Source: Bacteroidales bacterium
Lineage (GTDB): Bacteria; Bacteroidota; Bacteroidia; Bacteroidales; UBA12077
Assembly: GCA_003446015.1 (NCBI GenBank)
Contig: DMBU01000068.1
Coordinates: 27,286 to 91,285 of the forward strand
Direction of reading: 5' to 3'
Length of the DNA: 64,000 bases
Part shown: in pieces, positions 2,368 to 33,787 of the stretch
How the letters are laid out: each line of letters starts with the position of its first letter
How positions within the stretch are numbered: position 1 is the first letter of the stretch
Made by a program: the position numbers and the translations under genes
The notes under the pieces: generated by a model
Databases searched by the model: none
What the model was told of the DNA's origin: nothing
What the model saw: the letters and a program-made list of their open reading frames with translations, nothing else

Positions 2368-2368
2368 T

Positions 2369-2785: not shown

Positions 2786-2807
2786 AAAATTTTAACTGCT
2801 TATTTAT

Positions 2808-2836
2808 TAGGTCGTAAAGCTTTGCGACCTTTTTTT
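2808..2836 (+). terminator. Rho-independent terminator
   Basis: AGGTCG...CGACCT stem with an internal AAAGCTTT palindrome, then a T-run. Confidence 0.7.
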
Positions 2837-2870
2837 ATTTTTTAGTTTTGATCTTATTTTTTAGATTTGG

Positions 2871-3467: not shown

Positions 3468-4204
3468 TGGAGAATAAATTCGATTGGATTGAGAAGTATT
3501 TAATGAATGAAATGTCGGTTAGGGAACAAATAGAATTTGAAGAATCTTTAAGAACAAACCCTGATCTGATGAAAGAATTTCTACTTAGAAGGCGCATTAA
3601 CGATGCTATTACTGAGGATGATATTTTAAATTTAAGGCAAAACTTAAATCATATTATAAACCTCGAAACGGAGGAGCCTAACAAGCGACTATATATTTAT
3701 TCGGCTGTTGCAGCTATTCTGGTATTTGTTATCGTGGTATCCGGTATTTTTCTAAATAGGGAAAAGCAAGTTGAGAAAAACAGCCTTTTTGCATCTTATT
3801 ATTCTGCATATCCTGCCATGATGAGTTTTCGGTCTTTAAGCGATCAAAATGATACTACAAAGTTAATGTATGAAGCATTTAATTTTTACGATGAAAATGA
3901 ATATGATTCAGCAGCTGTTTATTTTAAAATGGTTCTGGAAAAAGATGCAACGAATACGATGAGCCAGTTTTATTTGTCGGTCTGCGAAATCGAGAATAAT
4001 AATTTGATCGAGGCTGAAGAATATTTAAGTGATCTTATTCAAAAAAAGAATCATATTTTCTGGGAACAATCAAATTGGTATTTGGCACTCGTTTATTTAA
4101 AACAAAATGAATTAGATAGTGCAGAAAGTATCTTAAATAAAGTAGTTCAAGAGAATATGACACAGAAACCTGATGCAGAAATTATTCTAAAGAAGTTGAA
4201 TTAA
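3464..4204 (+). CDS. Single-pass membrane protein with C-terminal TPR-like domain, putative anti-sigma factor
   Basis: Translationally coupled to the sigma gene. Has an N-terminal ~75-aa soluble segment, one TM (LYIYSAVAAILVFVIVVSGIFL) and TPR-like repeats. Paralog of 7480..8232. Confidence 0.55.
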   Translation: MMENKFDWIEKYLMNEMSVREQIEFEESLRTNPDLMKEFLLRRRINDAITEDDILNLRQNLNHIINLETEEPNKRLYIYSAVAAILVFVIVVSGIFLNREKQVEKNSLFASYYSAYPAMMSFRSLSDQNDTTKLMYEAFNFYDENEYDSAAVYFKMVLEKDATNTMSQFYLSVCEIENNNLIEAEEYLSDLIQKKNHIFWEQSNWYLALVYLKQNELDSAESILNKVVQENMTQKPDAEIILKKLN

Positions 4205-6983
4205 TTTTTCTTCGTTTTAGAAATAGGAACAATATTAAAGCAACAAGAACTAGCGTGATTCCAGAATAAACATAATATTTCGTATCCGATTCAAATAAAG
4301 CACTATTGCTGCCTATTACCACATATCCCGACCAAAAATAGGGATGAGCCCTTAACTGGTCAGCATTTTCGATAAATTCAATTTTCGATAATTGAAGTGA
4401 TTCGGATTTTGTTTTTCCTTTTAACAGATTTTTATAAAAGGACGTCATTAATTTAACACCTGATTTATCTTCAACAGACCAAAGAGTCATAATAATTGAA
4501 GGACATCCCGAATAAATAAACCCTCGGGCAAGACTCATTACTCCCTCGCCACGTTGCATTTTTCCACTACCGCTATTACATGAACTTAACACAGCCATTC
4601 TACTGTTTAATTTCATATTATATAACTCGTAGGTATTTAAAAATCCATCTTCTGTGCTATCTTCCTGTTGTGTAAAAGCCATTTTAGAATACATAGGATT
4701 TTGATCGTCCATAATGGTATGCATAGCTAAATGAAGAATATCATAAAAAGGAGCAACCTTCTTGAAGGTTTTCTCATTAGCTCTGTAATCCAAATACATA
4801 TCTCCATGAAGTAATTCTGAAATTTTTTGTACTTCATCTTTAATACCCTTTAAAGGAAATAATCGCTCTCTATATTCCTGGCGGAATGATGTAAATCCTT
4901 CGGGCATTGACCCAATGTTATTGTAGGTAGGAGCAAATGCTCCTAATTTCTTAGCTGCTGTTTGACTTCTATTATTATTGTTAAACAAAAATGAGGCTGA
5001 ATAAGAATAACTAAAATGATTCTTATACAATAAATATGGCAATCCCTTGTAGTTTATTCTATCAAATGCTATATACTCATTGGTCAAAACTTCAAATGGG
5101 AGATATGCAAGTTTTCCATCAGGAATTATAATCAGATTCTTATTCCTTATTATATTCTCAATAGGTTTTAATAATTGATTGTAAATATAAAAAGATGATT
5201 CCTGATACTGCTTAAACTCCTGATACCCGTGATTTGAAAAATTATTATTCGATAAAGCATTTAATAATTTATCAAGATGATTAATAAAAACCTGATCCAT
5301 AGCCTGTTCAAGGATGTTTGAGTTCTGTTTTCCTATAACAATGGTATATATTTTATTACTAGTAATAAAGTATTCGATAAGTACATCTTTTCGCTTTAGC
5401 TTTTTTTGAACTTCATCTATGCTCAGGTTATGTTGTACTTGTTTTAGGGCATAATAATTTTGAAAATTATGTTCAAGGTAAATGGTTAAATCATCGAACT
5501 CTCTTTTTTTCTCAAAAAGATATTTATTCCAGTATTCTAATTTATTTTGATCGGGATCTTGCTTCTTTTTTTCTTCGTAAATTAATTCCTCGTATGACCA
5601 GATACCCTTTTCGAGCTGTTTTTCTTTGGTGATAAGTGAATCAGGAATACCTCCAATATTTAATGCATGGGTATTTTTGAGCGCTTCTGTTAAAATAGCC
5701 GACTTTCCATCTTCACTATAATTAAAAGCTTTTTCCAGGAATTCGTTGTCATTGGTTAAATGGTATAACTTATAACTAGTTTGTAAAGCACTTGAAAAAG
5801 TTTCAAATTCATTATCAGCTAAAAACAATTTACTTTCCTCACTTAAATAACCTGCGCGAATTTTATGGATTGTTTCTATGGCACGGTCAAAGGTTTGTAA
5901 ACTTAGCCGGTAATTTGCTATATCATTCTGTTCTTCGGCCAGTTTAGATAAAGCATTAGCTTTATTTTTTAAGGCACTTAACAAATGTGTTTTTGATAAA
6001 ACCTGGTTTAAATCAGGATTAGAACTTAAACGAGTATCATTAAATTGGGGAGCTAAAGCAATTAAGGATTTTTGAAAATAAAACAATGCACTATCTAGGT
6101 TTGAGTCTAAGTAAAACTCACCTAAATTATTATAACCGCTTGAAATATTCGGATGAAATTCCCCGAGATTTTGTTTATAAATTTCTAATGATTTTAATAA
6201 GTAATGCTTTGCTTTTATTTTATCATTTTTTTTAAATAAAAGCGATGAATAATTCATGTAGTTCAAAGCTAATCTCAAATTATCTCTCCCAAAATATTTA
6301 GTGGCCAGTTCAAATGCTTCTAAATAATATATTTCCGCTTTGTAATAATTAGAATCTTTTTGATAACATACAGCTAAATTTCCTAAAGTAGTATATTTTG
6401 ATTCTATATTTTTAAGGTTTAAACTAATAGAGTAATAAAGAATTGCTTGGGAATAATCCCCATTTTTTCTATAAATATTACCAAGATTATTGTAAGTTGA
6501 TGCTAATTGATTCTTATAGGTAATAGAATCCTGTTTAAAAATATGAAGAGCTCTTAAATGAAAATCTTTAGCCTTAGCATAATCCTGCTGAATGAAATAA
6601 ATATTTGCTTTGTTCCCATAAATATATGCCAATAAGGACTGGTTATTATTTTTAAGATATATTTCCTCGGATTTATCATAGCATTCAACAGCTTCTTCAT
6701 ATTTTCCTAAAAGTTTATTAATAATACCTAAACTCTGGTATGCATTGGCAAGAAGAGTACTATCAGTTTCTTGAAAACTTTCATAGACAAGAACTGCTTT
6801 TTGAGTATAAAGTAATGCACTGTCTAAAATTCCTGTTTTTCCGAGATTTACCCCTTTTGTATAAAATATTTCTGCATTTTTCAATTGATAAACTCGATTA
6901 ATACTATCCGCAGGTTCACCAAAAGCAAATAGCCTGAGCGTAAAAAACAGAAACAAGTTAAAAATTAAATATTTCAAATGCAT
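4182..6983 (-). CDS. Secreted, C-terminally membrane-anchored TPR-CHAT (caspase-like) domain protein
   Basis: N-terminal signal-like segment (MHLKYLIFNLFLFFTLRLFAFG). Many TPR repeats. CHAT-type His/Cys dyad context (DILHLAMHT ; AVLSSCNSGSG). C-terminal TM followed by KRRK. Confidence 0.8.
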   Translation of the reverse strand: MHLKYLIFNLFLFFTLRLFAFGEPADSINRVYQLKNAEIFYTKGVNLGKTGILDSALLYTQKAVLVYESFQETDSTLLANAYQSLGIINKLLGKYEEAVECYDKSEEIYLKNNNQSLLAYIYGNKANIYFIQQDYAKAKDFHLRALHIFKQDSITYKNQLASTYNNLGNIYRKNGDYSQAILYYSISLNLKNIESKYTTLGNLAVCYQKDSNYYKAEIYYLEAFELATKYFGRDNLRLALNYMNYSSLLFKKNDKIKAKHYLLKSLEIYKQNLGEFHPNISSGYNNLGEFYLDSNLDSALFYFQKSLIALAPQFNDTRLSSNPDLNQVLSKTHLLSALKNKANALSKLAEEQNDIANYRLSLQTFDRAIETIHKIRAGYLSEESKLFLADNEFETFSSALQTSYKLYHLTNDNEFLEKAFNYSEDGKSAILTEALKNTHALNIGGIPDSLITKEKQLEKGIWSYEELIYEEKKKQDPDQNKLEYWNKYLFEKKREFDDLTIYLEHNFQNYYALKQVQHNLSIDEVQKKLKRKDVLIEYFITSNKIYTIVIGKQNSNILEQAMDQVFINHLDKLLNALSNNNFSNHGYQEFKQYQESSFYIYNQLLKPIENIIRNKNLIIIPDGKLAYLPFEVLTNEYIAFDRINYKGLPYLLYKNHFSYSYSASFLFNNNNRSQTAAKKLGAFAPTYNNIGSMPEGFTSFRQEYRERLFPLKGIKDEVQKISELLHGDMYLDYRANEKTFKKVAPFYDILHLAMHTIMDDQNPMYSKMAFTQQEDSTEDGFLNTYELYNMKLNSRMAVLSSCNSGSGKMQRGEGVMSLARGFIYSGCPSIIMTLWSVEDKSGVKLMTSFYKNLLKGKTKSESLQLSKIEFIENADQLRAHPYFWSGYVVIGSNSALFESDTKYYVYSGITLVLVALILFLFLKRRKINSTSLE

Positions 6984-7201: not shown

Positions 7202-7360
7202 ATGAAAACATTAAAAAACATTTTCGGAATTGAAGAAACAAAAAAAACAATAAATAATTTTTCAGGTAAACTGGATTTACATGCAATGATTTTGATTAAA
7301 GGTGGTGATGGGGATGATGATGATTTATGGCCACCTACAATTGGATCTGGTACAAACTAA
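7202..7360 (+). CDS. Unannotated 52-aa double-glycine-leader peptide (MKTLKNIFGIEETKKTINNFSGKLDLHAMILIKGG|DGDDDDLWPPTIGSGTN)
   Basis: Hand-translated ATG..TAA ORF. The MK-LKN start and IKGG end resemble the leaders at 12272, 12570 and 12971. A hairpin plus T-run follows. Confidence 0.6.
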   Translation: MKTLKNIFGIEETKKTINNFSGKLDLHAMILIKGGDGDDDDLWPPTIGSGTN

Positions 7361-9037: not shown

Positions 9038-9391
9038 ATGAGTACATATAACATATACGTTCCCACCGAAAAAGGTAAAATGAAGATAGATTGTAGTCAG
9101 ATTTTGTATATTGAATCAAGTCTGCAATTTACCAGAATAACATTTGTAAATAATGAGAACCTTGAGCTATTGTTAACGATGAGCGAAACAGAACATTTGC
9201 TTTTTAATCAGGGTTTCTTCCGTTTTAACAATAAGTATCTGGTTAATCTTAAATATGTTGAGGTTGTATTTCCATCCGATGCTTCAAAAGTTGTATTAGA
9301 AAACGGGAAGGAAATATTTGTTAACCACAACAAAAAGGAGGAATTGTTTGAAAGTTTGCGTCAGGTTTATGATCTGCAAGAATTAGCATAG
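9038..9391 (+). CDS. Stand-alone LytTR DNA-binding domain protein (no receiver domain)
   Basis: 117 aa. LytTR-like core FFRFNNKYLVNLKYV. Confidence 0.65.
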   Translation: MSTYNIYVPTEKGKMKIDCSQILYIESSLQFTRITFVNNENLELLLTMSETEHLLFNQGFFRFNNKYLVNLKYVEVVFPSDASKVVLENGKEIFVNHNKKEELFESLRQVYDLQELA

Positions 9392-9490: not shown

Positions 9491-9826
9491 ATGGAAAATG
9501 TTGCAATTCATATAAACAGGCCCAAAACCAGCGATCTTAAAGAAGTTGTATTTTTAGAATCCATAGGAGGATTTACAAGAAAATATTGCAATAATGGAAG
9601 AGAATTTTTAGTTGAAAATGATTTACATAAACTAGAGGAAAGCCTACCTAAAGAAAAATTCTTTAAAATAAACGATTCGTTTATTATAAATGCCGACTAT
9701 TTAAAACGAATAAAAGTTCGGGCAATAAAAAATGTTTTATTACTAGGAGGAATAGAATTAAACATTGCTCAGGACAGATACTGGGAACTGGTTAAGTTTC
9801 TGAAATTTAAATATAATGTTTGGTAA
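9491..9826 (+). CDS. Stand-alone LytTR DNA-binding domain protein (no receiver domain)
   Basis: 111 aa. FFKINDSFIINADYLKRI. Clear paralog of 9885..10235. Confidence 0.7.
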   Translation: MENVAIHINRPKTSDLKEVVFLESIGGFTRKYCNNGREFLVENDLHKLEESLPKEKFFKINDSFIINADYLKRIKVRAIKNVLLLGGIELNIAQDRYWELVKFLKFKYNVW

Positions 9827-9884: not shown

Positions 9885-10235
9885 ATGACGAAAAAGGCTA
9901 TTCTATTTAATGATAATGATAATTCGTTACTAGTAAAAAAACTTGACGAGATTGTTTATATGGAATCTTTCGGATGCAAGACCAAAACTTGTTTTTGCGA
10001 TGGGAAGGAACTTTTAATTAAAAAATATTTAAGTCAGGTTGAAGAATCTTTACCAAGTGAGAATTTTTTTAAAGTACATAAGTCGTTTATTATTAATATT
10101 AAATATCTCAAAGGGATTAATGTCAATACAAAGAAATCTGTTTTATTGAATGATGGGATCGAAATTAAAATCTCACATAGAAAATATAAAGATTTTATGG
10201 AATTCGTAAAAAATCGTTTTGTTATCTGGCAGTAA
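9885..10235 (+). CDS. Stand-alone LytTR DNA-binding domain protein (no receiver domain)
   Basis: 116 aa. FFKVHKSFIINIKYLKGI. Confidence 0.7.
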   Translation: MTKKAILFNDNDNSLLVKKLDEIVYMESFGCKTKTCFCDGKELLIKKYLSQVEESLPSENFFKVHKSFIINIKYLKGINVNTKKSVLLNDGIEIKISHRKYKDFMEFVKNRFVIWQ

Positions 10236-10547: not shown

Positions 10548-12164
10548 GTGAAAAATACTTCTATTTTTTTATTAAAAAAGCTTCTTAAAGCCTACACGAT
10601 TAAATTAGATGAAAAGGAGCTGGAATTTCAGCTATTAAGTCATCCTTCGTTTCCAAGTTTGCATTCTTTGACTGGCGTTCTTGACCATTTTAAAATAGAA
10701 AATGTTGCTCTGGAAGTTCCAAATAATTTGGAAACCCTAAGCCAAATGCCTAAAGTTTTTATTGCATATATAAAAAAGGGAAAAAGTGATGATTTGGTAT
10801 TGGCCACAATTGCCGACTCTCAGGTTACACTTATCTATAACGATAAAATTAGAGAAGTTTTATCATTAAATCAATTTTGTGAAATTTGGTCCGGGATTTT
10901 TATAGCCATTGAAAAAGATAATGAAGTAATTTCAAAATCAAAAGTAAGCCTAAAAGGTTTAAGAGCCTTACCTGTATTACTTACATTACTTGCGCTAATT
11001 ACGTTATTTTTTACTTTTAAACCAGGGTTGTTTCAATCAATTCATTTCTTACTTTCGTTTATCGGATTTGGGGTAAGTATAATAATAGTAAAACATGAAT
11101 TAGGACTTTATTCAAGGATTGCAGATAAAGTTTGCTCAGGAAATTACAAGAAAATTAATTGTGATGAGGTACTTAAATCAAAGGCAGCGTCATTCTTAGG
11201 ATTTATTAAATTAAGTGATATTGGAATTGTCTATTTTATTTCAATGATTTTATCATGGATGCTTATTATTATAAGTGGAGCCAGCAATACAACAATAATT
11301 TTAATTACTATACTGGCACTGCCGTTTACACTATATTCTGTTTCATATCAATATTTTATAGTAAAAAAATGGTGTGTGCTATGTTTAAGTATTGTTTTAA
11401 TACTGTGGTTACAAGCATTCTCATTGTATTATAGTGATTTTAAATTTAATCAGGTTATACTTAGCCCAATTAGTTTGAAGTTAATTGTAGTTAGTGTACT
11501 ATTTTCAATTGTTGCCTGGCAATTTATTTTACCTAGACTAAAAAAAGAGCAGGCTTTTGTTAAGCTTAAAATAGAACATTTTAAGTTTAAACGGAACTTT
11601 AGCTTGTTTAAAGCACTGCAATCAGTAATAAATCCAATAAATACAACTATAAATGGTATACAGGAAATTCAATTTGGCAATAACCCAAAATTCCTTCATG
11701 TAATAATAATTACAAACCCATTGTGTGGGTACTGCAGGGAAACTCATGCTTTAGTTGAAAAATTACTGGAAAGAACAGGTGTCGAGTTGCAGGTTACAAT
11801 AAGATTTAATGTAAGTCTAAAAGAAGAATCTATAGATACCTCAATAGCACATAAACTTTTCGAAACATATAATGCAAAAGGGGAGAAAGAGTGTTTAAAC
11901 GCGATGCACGATATTTATGGTAAACTAAACCCAACGGACTGGTTCAAGAAATGGGGAGAACCTTCAAGTCATCAATATATAGAGTCATTAAGTAAGCAGA
12001 AACAGTGGTGTGTTAAATCAAATATAAATTTCACCCCCGAAATTTTAGTAAATGACAAAGCATTTCCAAAGGAATATGAGCGGTTGGATTTACTATATTT
12101 CTTAGACGATATTATTGAAGATGTTAGGGAGGAAACATTGGTTTTAATTAAGGAAGAAGTATAG
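10548..12164 (+). CDS. Fusion protein: degenerate C39-like N-domain, VKOR (vitamin K epoxide reductase) membrane domain and thioredoxin/DsbA-like domain
   Basis: N-terminal ~130 aa resemble a C39 domain but lack the Cys and His. VKOR loop cysteines CSGNYKKINC and membrane CXXC (WCVLC). C-terminal thioredoxin-type CGYC. GTG start taken from the ORF track. Confidence 0.7.
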   Translation: MKNTSIFLLKKLLKAYTIKLDEKELEFQLLSHPSFPSLHSLTGVLDHFKIENVALEVPNNLETLSQMPKVFIAYIKKGKSDDLVLATIADSQVTLIYNDKIREVLSLNQFCEIWSGIFIAIEKDNEVISKSKVSLKGLRALPVLLTLLALITLFFTFKPGLFQSIHFLLSFIGFGVSIIIVKHELGLYSRIADKVCSGNYKKINCDEVLKSKAASFLGFIKLSDIGIVYFISMILSWMLIIISGASNTTIILITILALPFTLYSVSYQYFIVKKWCVLCLSIVLILWLQAFSLYYSDFKFNQVILSPISLKLIVVSVLFSIVAWQFILPRLKKEQAFVKLKIEHFKFKRNFSLFKALQSVINPINTTINGIQEIQFGNNPKFLHVIIITNPLCGYCRETHALVEKLLERTGVELQVTIRFNVSLKEESIDTSIAHKLFETYNAKGEKECLNAMHDIYGKLNPTDWFKKWGEPSSHQYIESLSKQKQWCVKSNINFTPEILVNDKAFPKEYERLDLLYFLDDIIEDVREETLVLIKEEV

Positions 12165-12210
12165 ATTCCGGATAATTATCTAGGAATTACTAAAATATTT
12201 TTTTGAAATG

Positions 12211-12260
12211 AAAAACCGAAACCTTGACGGTTTTAAGTGCTCAAGGTTTATTAACCCAAA
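12211..12260 (+). promoter_or_regulatory. Conserved precursor 5' element, copy 1
   Basis: AAAAACCGAAACCTTGACGGTTTTAAGTGCTCAAGGTTTATTAACCC ends 14 nt before the ATG at 12272. Near-identical copies lie at 12508 and 12912, and a diverged copy at 13420. Confidence 0.6.
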
Positions 12261-12271
12261 ATTTTATTAAT

Positions 12272-12418
12272 ATGAAAAATTTAAAAAATTTAAAAGGAGC
12301 TAAGAAGCTTAGCAAAATGGAGCAAAAAGCGATTAAAGGAGGCTATGCCTGCAGAGAACCCGAAATGTGGTGCCCTCCAGGAAGTTGTTGTGTAAATGGT
12401 CTTTGCAGGCTTTGTTAG
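12272..12418 (+). CDS. GG-leader precursor peptide A1 (MKNLKNLKGAKKLSKMEQKAIKGG|YACREPEMWCPPGSCCVNGLCRLC)
   Basis: In-frame internal start of ORF 12224..12418, chosen by paralog alignment. 24-aa leader ending in GG. 6-Cys core. Confidence 0.8.
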   Translation: MKNLKNLKGAKKLSKMEQKAIKGGYACREPEMWCPPGSCCVNGLCRLC

Positions 12419-12442
12419 CGGTTAATCTCACTATTCATGAAG

Positions 12443-12470
12443 TTACCTGAAATTGTTCAGGTAATTTCTT
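12443..12470 (+). terminator. Hairpin after precursor A1
   Basis: TTACCTGAA-attg-TTCAGGTAA followed by a T-rich tail. The homologous hairpin after A3 differs by pair-preserving (C-G to U.G wobble and U-A to C-G) changes. Confidence 0.55.
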
Positions 12471-12507
12471 AATAATTTTATATGAACATAGTGTGTAATA
12501 TATGTAT

Positions 12508-12560
12508 AAAAACCGAAACCTTGACGGTTTTAAAATGCTCAAGGAATATGAACCTAAAAT
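12508..12560 (+). promoter_or_regulatory. Conserved precursor 5' element, copy 2
   Basis: AAAAACCGAAACCTTGACGGTTTTAAAATGCTCAAGGAATATGAACC upstream of the ATG at 12570. Confidence 0.6.
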
Positions 12561-12569
12561 TTTAATAAA

Positions 12570-12743
12570 ATGAAAGATTTAAAAAATTTAAAGGGTGCTA
12601 AAAAGCTTAGCAAAAATGAACAACGATCTATTAAGGGAGGGATTGACATATGTGATATATACGGACATGATTGTCCTGAAGGTTATGTGTGTCAATGGAG
12701 AAACAGAACTACGGGTTGGTGCATACCTTATATTGAAGATTAG
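12570..12743 (+). CDS. GG-leader precursor peptide A2 (MKDLKNLKGAKKLSKNEQRSIKGG|IDICDIYGHDCPEGYVCQWRNRTTGWCIPYIED)
   Basis: Hand-translated, below the ORF-track size cutoff. Leader nearly identical to A1. 4-Cys core. Confidence 0.8.
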   Translation: MKDLKNLKGAKKLSKNEQRSIKGGIDICDIYGHDCPEGYVCQWRNRTTGWCIPYIED

Positions 12744-12750
12744 TTGTCAA

Positions 12751-12791
12751 AGTAAACTATAGAATACCCGACAGATTTTCTATCATTTACT
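12751..12791 (+). terminator. Interrupted hairpin after precursor A2
   Basis: AGTAAA..ATAGAA / TTCTAT..TTTACT. No clear T-run. Confidence 0.3.
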
Positions 12792-12911
12792 CATTATGAG
12801 CATTGAAAAGTTTTGTTTTTGAAAAATTTGAATCTGCTTAACAGAACGGGTCTTATAATGAATAATTTTAACAAAGTTTCATGACAAGCGAATTTACTTT
12901 AGAGTTGCTAT

Positions 12912-12960
12912 AAAAACCGAAACCTTGACGGTTTTAAAATGCTCAAGGTTTATTAACTTA
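12912..12960 (+). promoter_or_regulatory. Conserved precursor 5' element, copy 3
   Basis: AAAAACCGAAACCTTGACGGTTTTAAAATGCTCAAGGTTTATTAACTT upstream of the ATG at 12971. Confidence 0.6.
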
Positions 12961-12970
12961 AAAGTTTTAA

Positions 12971-13141
12971 ATGATGAAAGATTTAAAAAATTTAAAAGGC
13001 GCTAAGGTACTTAGCAAAAATGAGCAAAAAGTAATAAAAGGTGGATATGAGAAATGTGGGTTACATCCTGATCTAGGAACACTATGCCATGTAGGTTTTT
13101 GTTGTGTAGGCAGCGCTTGTTTGCCTTGTATGGAACCGTAG
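12971..13141 (+). CDS. GG-leader precursor peptide A3 (MMKDLKNLKGAKVLSKNEQKVIKGG|YEKCGLHPDLGTLCHVGFCCVGSACLPCMEP)
   Basis: Hand-translated. Leader homologous to A1 and A2. 6-Cys core with the same C-C-CC-C-C order as A1. The start could be the second ATG at 12974. Confidence 0.8.
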   Translation: MMKDLKNLKGAKVLSKNEQKVIKGGYEKCGLHPDLGTLCHVGFCCVGSACLPCMEP

Positions 13142-13168
13142 CTAAAACTTTTTTTGGCTCTTATGAGG

Positions 13169-13189
13169 TTATCCGAATTTTTCGGGTAA
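13169..13189 (+). terminator. Hairpin after precursor A3
   Basis: TTATCCGAA-ttt-TTCGGGTAA at the same relative position as the A1 hairpin. Confidence 0.45.
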
Positions 13190-13419
13190 TCTCTTATCTA
13201 GTCTTTTAGAAAAACAAAAGTTTCGTTGAATTCTATGAAACTTTATGAAAATTAAAGTTTTATATATTATTATTCAGCTGTTACCTGCAAAAGATATATT
13301 TGCCAAATGATAGCTGGATTTTTGACTTAATGATTATCGATAGTATTAAAATACTGGAGGTAGTTATGTTGACACTAAGTGATTAGCGAAAGTTTTATAA
13401 AATAATTGCGAGCAATGAA

Positions 13420-13468
13420 TAAACCGAAACCTTGAAGGTATTAGGTGTTCAGGAATTATTAACCCAAA
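13420..13468 (+). promoter_or_regulatory. Conserved precursor 5' element, diverged copy 4
   Basis: AAACCGAAACCTTGAAGGTATTAGGTGTTCAGGAATTATTAACCC upstream of the ATG at 13479. Confidence 0.5.
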
Positions 13469-13478
13469 TTTTTTAAAA

Positions 13479-13640
13479 ATGAAAAACAAAAAAAGATCAG
13501 ACTATTCATTATTATTTGATAATGAAAAAGCAATGTCTAAAGATGAACTGAATTTAACTAAAGGAGGTAGTGCATGTAATAATTTTCCAGTATTTGCAGG
13601 ACCCGTTTTCATGGGTTGGGCATATATTGGTCTCGGTTAA
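13479..13640 (+). CDS. GG-leader precursor peptide B1 (MKNKKRSDYSLLFDNEKAMSKDELNLTKGG|SACNNFPVFAGPVFMGWAYIGLG)
   Basis: Hand-translated. 30-aa leader of a second class ending in KGG. Hydrophobic core with 1 Cys. Confidence 0.7.
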   Translation: MKNKKRSDYSLLFDNEKAMSKDELNLTKGGSACNNFPVFAGPVFMGWAYIGLG

Positions 13641-13682
13641 CAACAATAAAAAATAATTAAACATTATCTAAATAAAAATAAA

Positions 13683-13856
13683 ATGAAAAAAGATAACAAA
13701 AACAGTTTTGAGTTAATCTTTGAGCAAAAAGATTTAATGAATAAAAATCAGATGAATGTTTTAAAGGGTGGAGCCCCATCTGGTTGTGTGGATATAAATA
13801 TTGGTTTCATTGCTTGTACAAATTTATGTATTGGTAAAGCACAGTATCCAGAATAA
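13683..13856 (+). CDS. GG-leader precursor peptide B2 (MKKDNKNSFELIFEQKDLMNKNQMNVLKGG|APSGCVDINIGFIACTNLCIGKAQYPE)
   Basis: Hand-translated. Leader alignable to B1 (S-(D/F)-(Y/E)-(S/L)-(L/I)-(L/I)-F...KGG). 3-Cys core. Lies 42 nt after B1. Confidence 0.7.
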   Translation: MKKDNKNSFELIFEQKDLMNKNQMNVLKGGAPSGCVDINIGFIACTNLCIGKAQYPE

Positions 13857-13892
13857 TTAAGGATAGAAGAATAATAGGTCCTTTTCGTTACA

Positions 13893-13923
13893 AAGAAAGT
13901 TACAAAAATGTTGTAACTTTCTT
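13893..13923 (+). terminator. Strong hairpin terminator after the precursor array
   Basis: Perfect 13-bp stem AAGAAAGTTACAA / TTGTAACTTTCTT with a 5-nt loop. Confidence 0.7.
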
Positions 13924-14145
13924 ATTTAAATGAGTAATATCATGAGTAGCTTGCAATTATAAATTATCAAATTACCTGAATATTTATACTAAAGAATAAA
14001 GTAGGATTGTTAAATTAAATTTAGCATCATAAAACACTCATATCAGTATTAGCACCTAGTTAATAAATTCTAATGATTAAATGCTTGTAGTAGAAATAGT
14101 TAAATAAATAATAAAGTAATATAGAAGAATTTAGAAAAATCTAAA

Positions 14146-15498
14146 ATGAATAATTATATGAATGAATACAAGAACTCCTCCCTTTTTTTTAATCCACATG
14201 GGGATATTATTAAAAATCAAGAAAAGAATCAGGTTGCATTAATAAATCCATTACTAAATACTTGGATTAAGATTAGTTGTAATGCATATGAAATGATTGA
14301 AAAGCTTACAAGTTCAAGTATAAATGGGTTAATTGAAAAGCAAGAAATAGATGAAGATTCTAAAGATGATTTTGTAAAATTGGTTAATTATTTAATCAGT
14401 AATAAATATCTATTGACAAAGTTTGAATATGATGTATTTAAAAATGTAAATATCTTAGAAGGCTATCAGGAAATGGTAAAATCAGTATTGCCAGAAATGT
14501 CTAAAAGACTATATTTAAGCCTTACTTCATCTTGTAATCTAAAATGTATTCATTGCTATAACACTGTAAAAAAGCCTAGTGAATATTTGGGTGAAGAAGA
14601 TCAAATTATTTATGATATTTTAGAAAAATTGAAGGATAATTATTTTTATGAGATTATCCTTACTGGAGGAGAACCATTTCTTAGAAAAGATATTTTTGAA
14701 ATCATAGAACAAACGATTGAAATTAGTAAAGAAGTTACAATAAATACAAATAGTTTATTATTAAATAAACAAAAAATAGAAAGATTAAAGAAGTATAAAA
14801 ATCTTACAATAGCTGTAAGTTTGGATGGTTTAACAAAAGCAACGCATGAAAACATTCGAGGTGTAAATACATTCGAGAAAACATTAGCAAATATTAATGC
14901 ACTAATTAAAAATGGGATTAAAACACATATTATTGCAACAGTTACAAAAAAGAGTTATAAAGAATTAGTAGGATTTGATGATTTTATTAAAGAATTAAGA
15001 ACTACTGGTAATTTAAGTTTTTTTACTCCTGTAGGAAAGGGCAAGGAATCGATTGATAATCTGATTATGGATAATAACGAACTTCAAGAATATTCAAATT
15101 TATTATTTGAAAAGCATAAAGATAAATTTGCAGATCAATTTGAAAAAGATAAAAATCATTCAATTCCAATTAAATTTAATTGTTCTGCTGGAATTGGTAT
15201 TTTAGGAATTGAACATACGGGAAGAGTTGTGCCATGTCATTTATTTCTCGGGAAAGATATTTCTCTTGGAAATATTTTGAGCGAATCGTTAGTAGACATG
15301 CAATTAAAGTGGTTAAAAAATGGAATTTTATCGGTTGATAGTAATTCTGAATGCAAAGATTGCTCAATAAGACATTTTTGTGGTAATGGTTGTTTAGCAA
15401 ATACTTATTACAATAATGGAACATTTAATGGAAAGGACCCTAATTGCCTCATCCATAAAATAGGAATACAGAGTAAAATATGGTATTGTGAAAATTAA
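14146..15498 (+). CDS. Radical SAM/SPASM-domain peptide maturase with N-terminal RRE-like extension
   Basis: CNLKCIHC (CX3CX2C). Cys-rich C-terminal SPASM-type region (CSAG...PCH ; CKDCSIRHFCGNGC...NC). About 120 aa precede the rSAM core. Confidence 0.8.
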   Translation: MNNYMNEYKNSSLFFNPHGDIIKNQEKNQVALINPLLNTWIKISCNAYEMIEKLTSSSINGLIEKQEIDEDSKDDFVKLVNYLISNKYLLTKFEYDVFKNVNILEGYQEMVKSVLPEMSKRLYLSLTSSCNLKCIHCYNTVKKPSEYLGEEDQIIYDILEKLKDNYFYEIILTGGEPFLRKDIFEIIEQTIEISKEVTINTNSLLLNKQKIERLKKYKNLTIAVSLDGLTKATHENIRGVNTFEKTLANINALIKNGIKTHIIATVTKKSYKELVGFDDFIKELRTTGNLSFFTPVGKGKESIDNLIMDNNELQEYSNLLFEKHKDKFADQFEKDKNHSIPIKFNCSAGIGILGIEHTGRVVPCHLFLGKDISLGNILSESLVDMQLKWLKNGILSVDSNSECKDCSIRHFCGNGCLANTYYNNGTFNGKDPNCLIHKIGIQSKIWYCEN

Positions 15499-15523
15499 TC
15501 TTTGTTTAATTAATTTAAAAATA

Positions 15524-16171
15524 ATGGATTTAAAGTTTTTTAAGAAGAACCTGATTGACTACTTATTTCTACCATTTTTAATTATTTCATTTTATTTGTA
15601 TTTAAATGAAAACAGACAAGGACTATTTGGGTATTATGTGATAATATTTGCTGTTTTAGTAGTCCTTAAATTCTCAAAGGAAGGATTTATAAATCTTTGT
15701 AGTTTATCTCTGGGTCAGGAACATAAAAAGATTTCTTTTGTTTCTTTTATGCTTTTAATCGTATCTTCAATTATTACATCTAATATTATATCATTTATCA
15801 TTCAAAGCAAATTTTTAAACGAGCATTATACAACAAAAAATTATTTTGATTATAATTTTTTGTATGTGTTTTTTATTTTTAATACTGTTCGCATATTTGG
15901 TGAAGAACTAATATTTCGAGGCTTTCTATTAATTGAGGATATTAGGATGAATAAAAGCGTATTTTGGTGGTTAAATCTCTTACAGGCTATTATGTTTAGT
16001 TTGATACATAGTTTTTTTGTGGAAGAACTGTCAAGTAAACTTGTTTTTACAAGCTACGTATTTTTATTCTCAATTTTTGCGGGTTGGATAAATAAGAAAT
16101 ATAATAGTTTACTCCCCAGTTGGATAATTCATTGGGCTAATGGGATTCTGAACTTTCTATATGTATTTTAG
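15524..16171 (+). CDS. CPBP-family intramembrane glutamic endopeptidase (CAAX protease / bacteriocin self-immunity type)
   Basis: EELIFRGF, FSLIH and IIHWANG motifs in a polytopic membrane protein. The alternative GTG start at 15488 overlaps the rSAM gene. Confidence 0.75.
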   Translation: MDLKFFKKNLIDYLFLPFLIISFYLYLNENRQGLFGYYVIIFAVLVVLKFSKEGFINLCSLSLGQEHKKISFVSFMLLIVSSIITSNIISFIIQSKFLNEHYTTKNYFDYNFLYVFFIFNTVRIFGEELIFRGFLLIEDIRMNKSVFWWLNLLQAIMFSLIHSFFVEELSSKLVFTSYVFLFSIFAGWINKKYNSLLPSWIIHWANGILNFLYVF

Positions 16172-16301
16172 CATAATTTTATTTAGAATTAACACATTTA
16201 AAAAATAGCTAATATTAGATATTGGTCGGATAATAAATATAATATTTCCTCAATTAATTTTAAATCCCTATTTTAGGAAGTTATTAAATCAATCATAAAA
16301 A

Positions 16302-18518
16302 ATGTCTTTCCCAAATTATAAACAACTCGATGCCATGGATTGCGGTCCAACCTGTTTAAGGATGATTGCAAAGCACTATGGCAAATCTTATTCATTACAA
16401 AACCTTCGTGATAAGAGCTACATTACCCGAGAGGGTGTTTCAATGCTTGGCATCAGTGATGCTGCTGAAGCAATTGGTTTTCGTAGTATGGGTGTTCGTA
16501 TTACGTTCGATCAACTCGTGAACGAAGCTCCACTGCCATGTGTGGCACATTGGAATCAAAATCATTTTGTTGTTGTATACAAGATTAAGAAAATCTCCCC
16601 AAACCCGTTTCGAAAAGGTGGAGTATTTGTTTATGTTTCTGACCCTGCTCGAGGGTTAATAAAATTTACTAAGGAAGAATTTGAAAATGCTTGGGCAAAT
16701 ACAAAAGAAGACGGAGAGGAAAAGGGCCTTTGCCTTTTACTTGAACCAACACCAGATTTTTACAAGGCCGATGACGAGAAGTTGAATAAATCCGGATTTA
16801 AGTTTTTGTTTTCTTATTTACGACCATATAAAAAGATTATAGTTCAATTATTCCTTGGACTGTTGTTAGGGAGTTTACTACAACTTATTTTTCCATTTTT
16901 AACACAGAGTATTGTCGATAAGGGTATTAATAATCAAAATCTCGATTTTGTTACATTAATCATCATAGCTCAATTAGTTTTAATATTTTCAAGAACTATA
17001 GTAGAATTCATTCGTAGTTGGATATTGTTGCACCTTGGAACAAGAATAAACATTTCTTTAATTTCTGATTTTTTAATCAAGTTAATGAAACTGCCGGTTT
17101 CATTTTTCGATACTAAAATGATTGGTGATATCATTCAGCGTATTGGCGATCATAAAAGAATAGAAAGCTTTTTAACTTCATCTACCTTAAATATTTTATT
17201 CTCCTTTATAAATCTTATCATCTTTGGTATTGTATTATTGTATTATAGTATAAACATTTTCTTAATATTTCTTGCAGGAAGTTTTCTCTATACTGCATGG
17301 GTTTACCTATTCATGAAAAAGCGACGCGATCTGGATAATCGTCGGTTTGCCCAAATGTCAAGTAATCAAAGCAATGTAATTCAGTTAATAACCGGAATGC
17401 AGGAAATTAAGCTGAATAATTGCGAAAAACAAAAGCGCTGGGAGTGGGAGAATATTCAGGCCCGATTATTTAAAGTGAATATGGCAAGTTTATCCTTAAG
17501 TCAGTATCAGCAGGCTGGAGGAGTTCTAATCAACGAAGTAAAAAATGTAGCTATAACTTTTATTGCTGCAAAATCAGTAATCGATGGCAATATGACATTG
17601 GGTATGATGTTGGCGGTTCAATATATTATTGGTCAGTTAAACAGCCCAATCAATCAAATGATTACTTTTTTACAATCAACACAGGATGCAAAAATAAGTT
17701 TGGAACGACTGGGTGAAATTCATCAAAAGGAAAATGAAGAATCTGATGAAGAACCAAAAATTGATATCTTACCTGAACATAGGGAGTTAAATCTTAATAA
17801 CATATTTTTTCAGTATGAAGGTCCTCACTCACCTTTTGTATTAGATGATGTAAATTTGAATATCCCCGAAAAGAAAATAACAGCCATTGTAGGGACCAGC
17901 GGAAGCGGAAAAACAACATTAATTAAGTTATTGTTAGGGTTTTATAATCCAACCAAAGGAAAAATAAATCTGGGCGATCTGTATTTGAATAATGTAAGTA
18001 ATAGAATGTGGCGCGATAAATGTGGAGTTGTAATGCAGGATGGATTTATATTTTCTGATTCAATTGCAAATAACATCTCGGTTATGGATGAATTTCCTGA
18101 CAGAGAAAGACTTTTACATGCTGTTAAAGTGGCCAATATTCAGGAATTTATTGAGTCATTGCCTTTAGGATACAATACTAAAATAGGACAAAATGGAGTA
18201 GGCTTGAGTCAGGGTCAAAAGCAGCGTATTTTAATAGCACGTGCCGTGTATAAAAATCCTGAGTTTATATTTCTTGATGAAGCTACCAATGCACTTGATG
18301 CCAACAATGAGAGGACCATCATGGAAAACCTTGATCAGTTTTTTAAAGGAAAAACAGTAGTTATTGTTGCACATCGATTAAGTACTGTTAAAAATGCCGA
18401 TCAGATTGTAGTATTGGAAAAAGGGAAAATTGTAGAATTAGGTACACATACTGAATTAGCTAAAAAGAAGGGAGTGTATTATGAGTTGGTTAAGAATCAG
18501 TTGGAGTTGGGTTCTTAA
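16302..18518 (+). CDS. Peptidase C39 domain-containing bacteriocin/peptide-cleavage-export ABC transporter
   Basis: N-terminal C39 with catalytic Cys (MDCGPTCLRM) and His (HWNQNHFVVV). 6-TM domain. Walker A GTSGSGKTT, signature LSQGQKQR, Walker B IFLDEAT. Confidence 0.9.
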   Translation: MSFPNYKQLDAMDCGPTCLRMIAKHYGKSYSLQNLRDKSYITREGVSMLGISDAAEAIGFRSMGVRITFDQLVNEAPLPCVAHWNQNHFVVVYKIKKISPNPFRKGGVFVYVSDPARGLIKFTKEEFENAWANTKEDGEEKGLCLLLEPTPDFYKADDEKLNKSGFKFLFSYLRPYKKIIVQLFLGLLLGSLLQLIFPFLTQSIVDKGINNQNLDFVTLIIIAQLVLIFSRTIVEFIRSWILLHLGTRINISLISDFLIKLMKLPVSFFDTKMIGDIIQRIGDHKRIESFLTSSTLNILFSFINLIIFGIVLLYYSINIFLIFLAGSFLYTAWVYLFMKKRRDLDNRRFAQMSSNQSNVIQLITGMQEIKLNNCEKQKRWEWENIQARLFKVNMASLSLSQYQQAGGVLINEVKNVAITFIAAKSVIDGNMTLGMMLAVQYIIGQLNSPINQMITFLQSTQDAKISLERLGEIHQKENEESDEEPKIDILPEHRELNLNNIFFQYEGPHSPFVLDDVNLNIPEKKITAIVGTSGSGKTTLIKLLLGFYNPTKGKINLGDLYLNNVSNRMWRDKCGVVMQDGFIFSDSIANNISVMDEFPDRERLLHAVKVANIQEFIESLPLGYNTKIGQNGVGLSQGQKQRILIARAVYKNPEFIFLDEATNALDANNERTIMENLDQFFKGKTVVIVAHRLSTVKNADQIVVLEKGKIVELGTHTELAKKKGVYYELVKNQLELGS

Positions 18519-18530
18519 TGGAAAAGTTTG

Positions 18531-18558
18531 CAGTTTGCAGTTTGCAGTCGGCAGTTTA
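18531..18558. repeat. Tandem heptamers CAGTTTG x2, CAGTCGG, CAGTTTA
   Basis: Read directly. About 6/7 complementary to the downstream CCAACTG units. Confidence 0.85.
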
Positions 18559-18609
18559 TACTAAATTTTAAATGATCGAATCAATAATATTAAAATTATT
18601 TACAGCATT

Positions 18610-18984
18610 ATGGGTGATTTCAGAGATTTAAAGGTTTATAAATTATCATATAAACTAGCAATGGAGATTTTTCATATAACTAAAAAATTTCCAAAAGAAG
18701 AAAGGTATTCCTTAACCGATCAGATTAGAAGGTCTTCACGTTCTGTAACTACAAACATCTCTGAATCATATCGGAAAAGAAGATATCCAAAACATTTTAT
18801 AAGTAAATTAAGTGATTCTGATGCTGAATTGGCTGAAACTCTTACTTGGTTAGACTTTTCGAAAGATTGTGAATACATTAATTATGAAGAACATACGTAT
18901 TTTATAAATGAGTATGAAGAGGTTGGAAAGATGTTAGGAAGTATGATAAATAAGCCAGAAAGATTTATAATAACAAATGGTTAA
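18610..18984 (+). CDS. Four-helix-bundle protein (23S rRNA intervening-sequence protein family)
   Basis: FRDLKVYKLSYKLAMEIFHITKKFPKEERYSLTDQIRRSSRSVTTNISE and the length are typical of this family. Confidence 0.8.
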   Translation: MGDFRDLKVYKLSYKLAMEIFHITKKFPKEERYSLTDQIRRSSRSVTTNISESYRKRRYPKHFISKLSDSDAELAETLTWLDFSKDCEYINYEEHTYFINEYEEVGKMLGSMINKPERFIITNG

Positions 18985-18987
18985 CAA

Positions 18988-19036
18988 CCAACTGCCAACT
19001 GCCAACTGCCAACTGCCAACTGCCAACTGTAAACTG
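18988..19036. repeat. Tandem heptamers CCAACTG x6 plus one degenerate unit (TAAACTG)
   Basis: Read directly. Translates as the artefactual QLPTANCQLPTANC at the 5' end of ORF 18977..20365. Confidence 0.9.
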
Positions 19037-19042
19037 AGCATT

Positions 19043-20365
19043 ATGAAAGAAAAACAAGAGTTCGAAAAAATAGAATTACGAAGCAACGAAGTACAAGAGA
19101 TCCTCACACGTCCTCCAAAATGGATTGTACGATGGGGAATAACAATGATCTTTGTGGTTATTATTGTTATTTTAACTGGTAGTTGGTTTTTTCAATACCC
19201 AGATATTGTTTCGGCTCAAATCGTTTTAACAACGGAGAACCCACCGGCTCCTGTTTTAGCAAAAACATCAGGGAAAATTCAAAAGCTACTTGTCTCAAAT
19301 GATGATGTAGTTGCTAAATATCAAGATTTAGGTGTTATCGAAAACCCTGGAAGTTTTGAATCAATTGTTAATCTATTAAAACAATTGGAATATTTTAAAG
19401 CAAATTTTAAACCAGGAGAGATTTTTAGTTTATCAAATCAATCTTATATTCTTGGTGATATCCAGTCAAGTTATGCCAGTTTTTATGCAAATGTTGAAGA
19501 GTACAACAAGTCGATCAAATTAAATTATCATAGACAAAAGCTGGATTTATATAAAAAGGAGCTAAAAAAATATGATAATTATTTAGCTAATATTATAACT
19601 CAAAACACAATTCTCCAGGAAGAACTTAATTTAACAAAGAAGCAGTATAACAGAGATTCTGTTTTATTTTCCAAAAATTTATTATCGGAATCTGATTTTG
19701 ACAAATCGAAGTCAGCTTTACTTTCTAAATTTTATAATTACGAGCAAAATAATGTAACTATTTCAAATGTTGAAATTCAGATTGAAAGTTTAAATCAAAG
19801 CATTCTCGAACTTGAGTTACAGCAAGAAAAACAAATTTCTGATCAAACTTCGCTTATTTGGGAATCGTACGAGAATCTCTTAGCAGCAATTAATTCATGG
19901 AAACACAACTATGTTTTAATTGCCCCAACTGATGGAATAGTAGGTTTTAATAAATTTTGGAATGAAAACCAATCGGTTAAAGCCGGGGAAACTGTAATGA
20001 CAATTATTCCAAGAGATGAGGGGAAATTAATAGGGAAAGTACAGTTAACCTTTCAAGGTGCGGGTAAAGTTAAAGAAGGTCAGAAGGTAAATATACAGTT
20101 TTCAAATTATCCATATATGGAATTTGGAATGGTTAGAGGTATCGTGAAATCTATTTCTCTTGCTCCCGATAATAATTATTATACTGCTGAAATTCAATTA
20201 CCCAATGGCTTAAAGACCTTTTACGGGATTGATCTGAATTTTAAACAAGAGATGCAAGGTACGGCCGAAATTATTACTGAAGATATGCGCTTATTGGAAA
20301 GAATCGTGAGGCCCCTCCAATTTATTTTAAATAAAAATACTAAGTTTGGGGATCACAACAATTAA
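19043..20365 (+). CDS. HlyD-family membrane fusion/secretion protein (partner of the C39-ABC exporter)
   Basis: Start moved to MKEKQEF, downstream of the repeat array. N-terminal TM, long coiled-coil region and a C-terminal beta-barrel-like region. Confidence 0.8.
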   Translation: MKEKQEFEKIELRSNEVQEILTRPPKWIVRWGITMIFVVIIVILTGSWFFQYPDIVSAQIVLTTENPPAPVLAKTSGKIQKLLVSNDDVVAKYQDLGVIENPGSFESIVNLLKQLEYFKANFKPGEIFSLSNQSYILGDIQSSYASFYANVEEYNKSIKLNYHRQKLDLYKKELKKYDNYLANIITQNTILQEELNLTKKQYNRDSVLFSKNLLSESDFDKSKSALLSKFYNYEQNNVTISNVEIQIESLNQSILELELQQEKQISDQTSLIWESYENLLAAINSWKHNYVLIAPTDGIVGFNKFWNENQSVKAGETVMTIIPRDEGKLIGKVQLTFQGAGKVKEGQKVNIQFSNYPYMEFGMVRGIVKSISLAPDNNYYTAEIQLPNGLKTFYGIDLNFKQEMQGTAEIITEDMRLLERIVRPLQFILNKNTKFGDHNN

Positions 20366-33768: not shown

Positions 33769-33787
33769 ATTTCATTAATTGTTTTCG

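Follow-up and report, generated by a model that had tools for sequence, protein, structure and literature searches.

Predicted disulfide-locked peptides behind a conserved double-glycine leader, and their putative dedicated oxidase, in Bacteroidota

Among characterised peptide systems, the closest to the one analysed here is that of the bacteroidetocins, bacteriocins from Bacteroidales for which a class IIf has been proposed (PMC6671954, PMC8546649). Bacteroidetocin loci encode a double-glycine (GG) leader peptide with four cysteines, a thiol oxidoreductase without which activity is lost, a five-transmembrane (5-TM) protein and a peptidase-containing ABC transporter (PCAT), and Bacteroides is without general disulfide machinery (PMC6671954). 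The system considered here, termed class A, lies in a 64,000-nucleotide stretch of DNA from a Bacteroidales bacterium (GenBank assembly GCA_003446015.1, contig DMBU01000068.1, positions 27,286 to 91,285 of the forward strand; this whole stretch is called the window, and coordinates count from its first letter). It comprises three small precursor genes, A1, A2 and A3, between positions 12272 and 13141, together with a fused VKOR/thioredoxin protein encoded directly upstream and an exporter encoded further downstream.

Two other kinds of protein are needed for the comparison. Bacterial VKOR-thioredoxin fusions reportedly replace DsbB/DsbA (Dutton et al. 2008; Li et al. 2010). In the DPY and CREMP modules, bonds 1-3 and 2-4 hold an N-terminal loop and the small beta-hairpin beneath it, and the DPY spacing is Cx5Cx5Cx4C (PMC12723725). 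A search of the open literature returned no description of the class-A peptide family, of a bacterial knottin, or of a C39-like/VKOR/thioredoxin fusion associated with peptides, though such a description may exist elsewhere.

The reading proposed here is that the three genes A1, A2 and A3 encode the precursors of small peptides that are secreted and locked by disulfides, and that belong to a very large, hypervariable Bacteroidota family; taken jointly with the pathway, fold and function set out below, it is given a probability of roughly 60%. The three genes are as follows.

12272-12418, + strand: A1 precursor gene, 48 aa; leader MKNLKNLKGAKKLSKMEQKAIKGG (24 aa), core YACREPEMWCPPGSCCVNGLCRLC (24 aa) with six cysteines, spacing C-x6-C-x4-CC-x4-C-x2-C (loops 6,4,0,4,2)
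12570-12743, + strand: A2 precursor gene, 57 aa; leader MKDLKNLKGAKKLSKNEQRSIKGG ending IKGG, core IDICDIYGHDCPEGYVCQWRNRTTGWCIPYIED (33 aa) with four cysteines, spacing C-x6-C-x5-C-x9-C (loops 6,5,9)
12971-13141 (alternative start at the second ATG, 12974), + strand: A3 precursor gene, 56 aa; leader MMKDLKNLKGAKVLSKNEQKVIKGG ending IKGG, core YEKCGLHPDLGTLCHVGFCCVGSACLPCMEP (31 aa) with six cysteines, spacing C-x9-C-x4-CC-x4-C-x2-C (loops 9,4,0,4,2)

These open reading frames, their translations and their cysteine spacings were reproduced exactly as given in a preliminary description of the locus, and A1, A2 and A3 are real genes. Their leaders match LSxxE(L)xxIxGG, the canonical pattern of GG leaders, as LSKMEQKAIKGG and variants. 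Pairwise between the three copies, synonymous versus non-synonymous codon differences in the leader number 6 versus 4, 4 versus 4 and 8 versus 3; most of the differences are synonymous, which argues for purifying selection on the leaders at the protein level. A1 has nine close homologues elsewhere, in metagenomes (P0001-P0009), and A2 has orthologue-like copies in the related loci L001 and L009. In the sister genome, L088, the oxidase is 97% identical to that of the window, A3 is 100% identical, the A2 core is identical, and the copy of A1 carries 4 substitutions, which fall in core loops 4-5 and spare every cysteine. Chance or non-coding open reading frames are ruled out by this conservation (homologues, invariant cysteine columns, family profile matches and the sister genome). 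Pfam and NCBIfam scans of the precursors returned matches to the leader only, all sub-threshold (NCBIfam leader_Chryseo, Pfam Bacteroid_pep).

The size of the family was assessed with a profile built from full precursors, which in an exhaustive search of 1.84 billion proteins, clustered at 50% identity, matched 1,964 cluster representatives at E <= 0.001, and in a word-indexed database matched 848 proteins. Where family members have public names, these are 'hypothetical', 'Bacteriocin', 'Bacteriocin-type signal sequence' or 'WAP-type four-disulfide core'. For a census independent of the cores, a hidden Markov model of the class-A leaders only was run over every small open reading frame in 80 loci from different species that encode the VKOR fusion. 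The commonest framework recovered was C-C-C-C (141/325), with 44 cores of order C-C-C-C-C-C and 37 of order C-C-CC-C-C, the order that both A1 and A3 carry. In the alignment of the latter 37 cores, from many genera, all six cysteine columns are invariant. The framework first noted in A1 and A3 is thus real and kept in homologues, and the loss of cysteine positions that the preliminary description had named as telling against it is not what the homologues show. Within this group the usual loops are 5-6, 4-5, 0, 3-9 and 2-14. A last loop of x2-x3, as in A1 and A3, is a minority variant found in a few Bacteroidales metagenome-assembled genomes (MAGs), so the x2 loop was correctly singled out as atypical: most relatives overall have a last loop of 6-14 and most Flavobacteriaceae members one of 7-14; KKQCDNHYQCGSGYCCNTAGWCQLFGDQGNTGYLCDGSII is an example of a long-loop relative.

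The early impression of hypervariable cores behind a conserved leader was borne out. The further statement that the cores are otherwise unrelated was slightly overstated, in that they share the scaffold motif C..C-x2-G-x1-2-(C)C-x4-C, and the six-cysteine and four-cysteine profiles align as homologues (hhalign probability 89%, E 2.4e-6); in that alignment Cys3 of the four-cysteine form falls on the CC pair's second C. The common four-cysteine scaffold is C-x5/6-C-x2-G-x2-C-x4-C. Spacing 5,5,4 is the commonest among the 141 four-cysteine cores (22 cases), and A1, read over Cys I, II, IV and V, has spacing 6,5,4. Close homologues of A1 occur in both forms: YACREPEMWCPPGSHCCGNLCRPDWWTC has six cysteines (loops 6,5,0,3,6), and YACREPEMWCPPGSICVDGLCRPV and YACREPEMWCPPRTVCIGGLCRPDWW have four, being without exactly two, the first of the CC pair and the last. 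As aligned, the four-cysteine and six-cysteine groups share one scaffold, and A2 is the base scaffold without the predicted third bridge.

Other cysteine frameworks occur with the same leader family, namely C-CC-C-C-C (the GFGSCYQDGWKCCQTTSRGIVFCDAGKCGTYGCFWY type, 16 unique cores), eight-cysteine cores and CC-CC-C-C-CC. They are found in loci L030, L043, L046-L050, L063, L082, L087 and others, and may represent separate folds formed by the same oxidase.

The class-A genes stand with genes for oxidation and export.

10548-12164, + strand: fusion protein of 538 aa, directly upstream of class A, with an N-terminal C39-like domain, a VKOR membrane domain and a C-terminal thioredoxin-like domain with CxxC (Pfam VKOR 3e-16, Peptidase_C39 7.9e-7, Thioredoxin_4 0.002)
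16302-18518, + strand: PCAT whose C39 domain is intact (Pfam Peptidase_C39 1.1e-31, ABC_membrane, ABC_tran)
18977-20365, + strand: periplasmic adaptor, of the HlyD family, for the exporter

An alignment of 27 homologues of the fusion protein leaves C196, C205, C276, C279, C393, C396 and C488 as its only invariant cysteines: C196 and C205 form the VKOR loop pair, C276xxC279 is the VKOR active site and C393xxC396 the thioredoxin motif. Its C39-like part has zero conserved cysteines and carries NTS where the exporter has the catalytic DCG, so this domain is almost certainly not a protease. Relatives of the fusion were found in 398 species genomes and more than 340 protein clusters, and their hosts include Bacteroidales MAGs, Marinifilaceae, Labilibaculum and many Flavobacteriaceae, among them Tenacibaculum, Aquimarina, Lacinutrix and Lutibacter. 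The association with the peptides is tight: 69 of the 80 loci hold one or more peptides that match the leader model (median 3, maximum 17), and among the 332 such peptides 331 lie on the oxidase strand and 295 downstream of the oxidase gene. From its domains and this linkage, the fusion protein is inferred to be a dedicated disulfide-forming enzyme for class-A cores. PCAT genes are present within 8 kb in 55/80 loci and HlyD genes in 48/80. The PCAT of the window retains the DCG catalytic motif and matches TIGR01193 (E 9.4e-131), and it is predicted to cleave the leader after GG and to export the core. In having GG leaders, a PCAT with an intact C39 domain and an accessory HlyD protein, the locus has the components that characterise class II bacteriocin-type export systems.

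The number of cysteines bears on how they are modified. Over all unique cores (n=546), 520 have an even number, 25 an odd number and one has no cysteine, and in the leader-only census 307 unique cores have 2, 4, 6 or 8 cysteines and 17 have an odd number. Another kind of modification could come from a module that follows the class-A genes in the window.

13479-13640 and 13683-13856, + strand: two class-B GG peptides, with a weak match to TIGR04149, directly preceding the radical SAM gene
14146-15498, + strand: radical SAM/SPASM enzyme
15488-16171, + strand: CPBP protease (Abi-like), with a possible immunity or processing role

The class-A cysteines could in principle be substrates of this radical SAM/SPASM enzyme, and the products thioether-bridged peptides synthesised by the ribosome and modified after translation (RiPPs) of the sactipeptide or ranthipeptide type, given that such a maturase is encoded 1 kb downstream on the same strand and that Bacteroidota GG-leader peptides are known as radical SAM targets (TIGR04149; PMC8939145). 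This is most improbable and was rejected on co-occurrence and module swapping. A homologue of the window's radical SAM enzyme was found in 0/80 VKOR-fusion loci, and the enzyme has its own weakly TIGR04149-like class-B peptides directly 5' of it. Close relatives keep the oxidase and the class-A array, whereas the module that follows differs: in L088 (same-species contig, 11209-20195) it is replaced by lanthipeptide LanC/LanB genes and two further class-A peptides, in L005 (10823-13896) a different radical SAM gene follows class A, and in L001 and L009 class A is present with the module and any radical SAM gene absent. Even cysteine parity, moreover, fits pairing and not links from Cys to C-alpha. 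Therefore, class A belongs with the oxidase and exporter, and the module at 13479-16171 is separate and not needed for it. The family PF14406 was also considered and dropped, its members being ATP-grasp/SPASM-linked precursors of a different system.

Since parity is even, the radical SAM homologue is absent from the 80 loci and the downstream module is swapped, an all-disulfide state is favoured; together with the dedicated VKOR/thioredoxin enzyme and no other cysteine-modifying enzyme, full oxidation of class-A cores to disulfides is the best reading of these sequences. As for the pairing, the vicinal CC and the sixth cysteine co-occur 112:0 and are jointly absent 122:5, in counts that are not corrected for phylogeny and partly follow from parity. 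The two cysteines are gained or lost as a pair in no fewer than three separate groups of close relatives, namely two sub-clades of A1 and the clade of KPINCYSNPICPP. This co-variation points to a CysIII-CysVI bond, and I-IV and II-V are the bonds that analogy with the DPY and CREMP modules and with the squash-inhibitor core would favour. Combining the two, the likeliest connectivity of A1 and A3 is I-IV, II-V, III-VI, the same pattern as in inhibitor cystine knot (ICK) peptides.

Comparison with solved structures gave a set of leads on the fold. In searches of the Protein Data Bank (PDB), the four-cysteine profile matched CREMP (9PGB, E 4.7e-4, summed over four modules), the squash inhibitors EETI-II and MCoTI (E 0.025-0.06), DPY (1OIG, E 0.1) and potato carboxypeptidase inhibitor (CPI; E 0.26). 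The HMMER alignment places the four bacterial cysteines on CII, CIII, CV and CVI of EETI-II, the two-bridge hairpin core of knottins known as the 'disulfide-directed beta-hairpin'; the CREMP, DPY and squash-core matches are mutually consistent. The six-cysteine profile matched DPY (E 0.012), followed by ICK toxins of spiders and scorpions together with a plant knottin (E 0.17-1.6). Per-member Pfam searches with 37 six-cysteine and 40 four-cysteine cores gave only scores below gathering (Squash 2/40, CarbpepA_inh 6/40, toxin families one each), with scattered sub-threshold matches to DUF7107, Dickkopf_N, EB, WAP and Lustrin, a hint and not membership. AlphaFold2, run with family alignments, returned for the A3 core a beta-hairpin at 18-21 and 24-27, around loop 4, plus a one-residue bridge (pLDDT 70.5), and for A1 three short strands (pLDDT 69.3). 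The predicted hairpin lies where a module of the DPY/CREMP type would have it.

On this basis the base fold would be a four-cysteine, two-disulfide beta-hairpin with bonds 1-3 and 2-4, as in DPY, CREMP and the squash core. A2 would have this form, and A1 and A3 would add a third bridge from the first Cys of the CC pair to the C-terminal Cys. Because the extra bacterial cysteine lies one residue before CV, it should face the opposite side of the strand from ICK CysIV, and the third bridge may staple the hairpin from the other side. We lean towards such a staple for the x2 variants, A1 and A3.

The preliminary description had read the framework as knottin-like, and a stricter form of that idea is that the C-C-CC-C-C members, A1 and A3 included, are true bacterial knottins in which III-VI threads the ring made by I-IV and II-V. 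Knottins carry six cysteines in the order C-C-CC-C-C, or with III and IV spaced apart, within about 25-40 residues, and A1 and A3 agree with this. Framework and size are identical to ICK framework VI/VII, the III-VI co-variation fits, A1 is predicted as a three-stranded sheet, the six-cysteine profile finds spider and scorpion ICK toxins and a plant knottin next after DPY, and the four-cysteine profile finds the squash and potato-CPI knottins. The classical knottin consensus is CX3-7CX3-6CX0-5CX1-4CX4-13C, and ten of the 37 locus-derived members, together with many and by one count most Flavobacteriaceae members, fall within its loop ranges. A1 and A3 fail those ranges, however: their last loop of 2 is too short against the minimum of 4 in the consensus, the loop 1 of 9 in A3 is too long, and loop 4 rather than loop 5 is where the hairpin is predicted. 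No significant likeness to any known knottin family was seen (Pfam below gathering scores, PDB profile E 0.025-1.6), matches of that order follow from cysteine spacing, and the EETI-II alignment puts the extra bridge where no ICK bridge sits, on the opposite strand face. The same connectivity also occurs in unknotted folds, for example CS-alpha/beta defensins. The knottin-like reading stands as to cysteine order, may hold for the connectivity, and does not stand as to family similarity and, for A1 and A3, loop ranges. A true knot is judged unlikely, though less so in relatives with long loops than in the x2 variants. It is equally doubtful that the C-C-CC-C-C members are the first cystine-knot mini-proteins of bacteria, with an origin separate from that of eukaryotic knottins, through addition of a CC/C-terminal bridge to a two-disulfide hairpin, and served by a dedicated, substrate-recruiting VKOR/thioredoxin foldase and a PCAT; if they were, prokaryotes would have their own counterpart to the hypervariable toxin system of the conotoxin type, and the natural variants of its scaffold would number about 2,000. 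A hevein/chitin-binding resemblance, noted for cores such as CGSGYCCNTAGWC in Tenacibaculum, was dropped, as there was no Chitin_bind_1 match at E <= 1.

The pathway may be pictured as follows. The 24-residue GG leader would direct the precursor to the PCAT and HlyD proteins, and the precursor would be cut after GG and the core exported, as expected from what is known of these families. The VKOR domain, a quinone-dependent oxidase, and the thioredoxin-like domain would oxidise all core cysteines on the outer side of the inner membrane, a step proposed because of domain content, tight gene linkage and cysteine parity. The inactive C39-like domain would probably recognise the leader or dock to the exporter.

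Other elements of the locus bear on regulation and function.

7202-7360, + strand: GG-leader peptide without cysteines, core DGDDDDLWPPTIGSGTN; just upstream of TPR, HisKA and LytTR genes and conserved in L001, L005 and L088
8264-9022, + strand: HisKA protein (Pfam)
9038-9391, 9491-9826 and 9885-10235, + strand: three LytTR DNA-binding proteins (Pfam)
12214-12231, 12511-12528, 12915-12932 and 13422-13439, + strand: four copies of an upstream box (4 matches versus 0.01 expected)

The HisKA and LytTR genes are syntenic in L001, L005 and L088, and their products are inferred to regulate the cassette. The box, about 35 nt long (AAACCGAAACCTTGACGGTTTTAA(A/G)TGCTCAAGG) and holding the inverted repeat CCTTGA-N13-TCAAGG, lies about 45 nt 5' of the ATG of A1, A2, A3 and class-B peptide 1 and also precedes class-A genes in L001 and L005. 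It matched no Rfam family, and the nearby regulators, LytTR or extracytoplasmic function (ECF) sigma, may use it as a promoter or operator. The peptide at 7202-7360 is a candidate secreted pheromone controlling the cassette.

By analogy, the most likely function of class A is interbacterial antagonism: the peptides would be bacteriocin-like, receptor-targeting rather than membrane-lytic, and under quorum-type HisKA/LytTR control. Arrays of hypervariable cores behind one leader, cassette turnover, PCAT/HlyD, HisKA/LytTR and the box before the peptide genes all fit antagonism, and the bacteriocin-type setting claimed for these genes at the outset is indeed present, with PCAT, HlyD, HisKA/LytTR and a dedicated thiol oxidase. 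A different role for the same disulfide-rich exported peptides, as extracellular signals, as inhibitors of proteases or other enzymes, or as factors at the surface or for metal binding, is quite unlikely. In its favour, the cores are mostly anionic and rich in Gly, Pro, Asp and Asn, they show weak likeness to squash inhibitors, potato CPI, WAP and Dickkopf modules, no immunity gene was identified, and HisKA/LytTR proteins are also typical of peptide signalling. Nevertheless, the cysteine-free GG peptide at 7202-7360 is a better pheromone candidate, multi-copy hypervariable arrays with cassette turnover are typical of antagonism loci, and the only characterised analogues, the bacteroidetocins, are toxic (PMC6671954). 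As a receptor for such peptides, the precedent is BamA.

It is important to set out the points that weigh against the proposed reading of secreted, disulfide-locked antagonists. The matches to solved folds are weak, sub-threshold and largely driven by cysteine spacing, and are leads rather than proof. Structure prediction of the cores, which the preliminary description had suggested, did give small beta strands, but the models are only moderately confident (pLDDT 69-70), and Foldseek comparison of the core models with the PDB gave zero matches for A3 and two non-significant ones for A1 (the Dkk4 N-terminal domain and scorpion LaIT1, both E 4.7), a search that is uninformative because 30-residue peptides are too short. 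The co-variation behind the third bridge carries the phylogeny and parity limits given with its counts, and the role of the C39-like domain is conjecture. The net charge of the cores has a median of -2, with 384/546 negative, unlike cationic bacteriocins and the somewhat basic bacteroidetocins. In addition, no clear immunity gene is evident at the locus, the only candidate being the CPBP/Abi-like gene at 15488-16171 in the variable module. Anionic cores and the lack of an evident immunity gene make a receptor-targeting toxin, or a non-toxic signal or inhibitor role, possible.

Some further features of the window complete its description.

1798-2367: ECF-type sigma factor
2871-3467: second sigma-like protein
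4182-6983, - strand: CHAT/TPR protein of 933 aa (CHAT protease)
18610-18984, + strand: 23S_rRNA_IVP/bAvd-like four-helix protein of 124 aa, between the PCAT and HlyD genes (Pfam E 2.4e-34)
33785-34180, - strand: tmRNA gene (Rfam RF00023, 166 bits)

The region at 1798-6983, with its sigma factors, TPR proteins and CHAT/TPR protein, is syntenic with the peptide locus in L001, L005 and L088, and the 23S_rRNA_IVP/bAvd-like gene is placed likewise in L001 and L005.

If the model holds, mini-proteins of 24-45 residues, naturally diversified and locked by disulfides, are encoded by the thousand in Bacteroidota, and would make the marine and gut/sediment members of the phylum a large and unexplored source of candidate antibacterials with a narrow spectrum. 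Leader, dedicated oxidase and exporter would then constitute a compact, portable production kit, and the inactive-C39/VKOR/thioredoxin fusion an unusual oxidative-folding enzyme that recruits its substrate via the secretion leader. Knottin-like scaffolds are at present made by chemical synthesis or by eukaryotic-type oxidative folding, and the same model would provide a bacterial route to such scaffolds, whose stability makes them sought after by drug designers. The family would also be a test case for the origin of cystine-stabilised folds, as two- and three-disulfide forms interconvert within close lineages.

Placed beside known systems, class A shares with the bacteroidetocins, as these are described in print, a Bacteroidota host, a GG leader, cysteine pairs thought to be disulfide-bonded, a thiol oxidoreductase of its own and a PCAT in the locus. 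Bacteroidetocins differ in being 42 aa long, somewhat basic and class-IIa-like, with four cysteines in another framework and a 15-aa leader, with separate 5-TM and oxidoreductase genes and usually one peptide per locus; the class-A cores at the locus have 24-33 aa, are mostly neutral or anionic and hypervariable, and follow a 24-aa leader, in arrays of up to 17 with a single fused oxidase. With knottins (conotoxin framework VI/VII, spider toxins and squash inhibitors) class A shares the C-C-CC-C-C order, a similar size, probably the connectivity and, by prediction, small beta-sheets, and with conotoxin superfamilies the hypervariable loops behind a conserved targeting region. It differs from knottins in being bacterial, in the predicted use of a VKOR/thioredoxin fusion instead of protein disulfide isomerases of the endoplasmic reticulum, in the last loop of 2 in A1 and A3, and apparently in where the extra bridge is placed on a shared two-disulfide core.

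DPY (Drosophila Dumpy, 1OIG) has the spacing Cx5Cx5Cx4C that is also the commonest bacterial four-cysteine spacing, and DPY and CREMP (9PGB) are the best sequence matches of solved structure; these modules are tandem repeats in giant eukaryotic structural proteins, whereas class-A products are predicted to be free secreted peptides, and the likeness is borderline and may be convergent. Like bacterial VKOR-thioredoxin fusions, the class-A oxidase has a VKOR loop cysteine pair and CxxC followed by a thioredoxin-like CxxC, all invariant; unlike them, it has an extra N-terminal inactive C39-like domain and is coupled to presumed substrates and an exporter rather than to housekeeping. Class A is thus of a known kind, Bacteroidota GG-leader peptides with a dedicated thiol oxidase, and is new in its scaffold, in the scale of its diversification and in the architecture of its oxidase.

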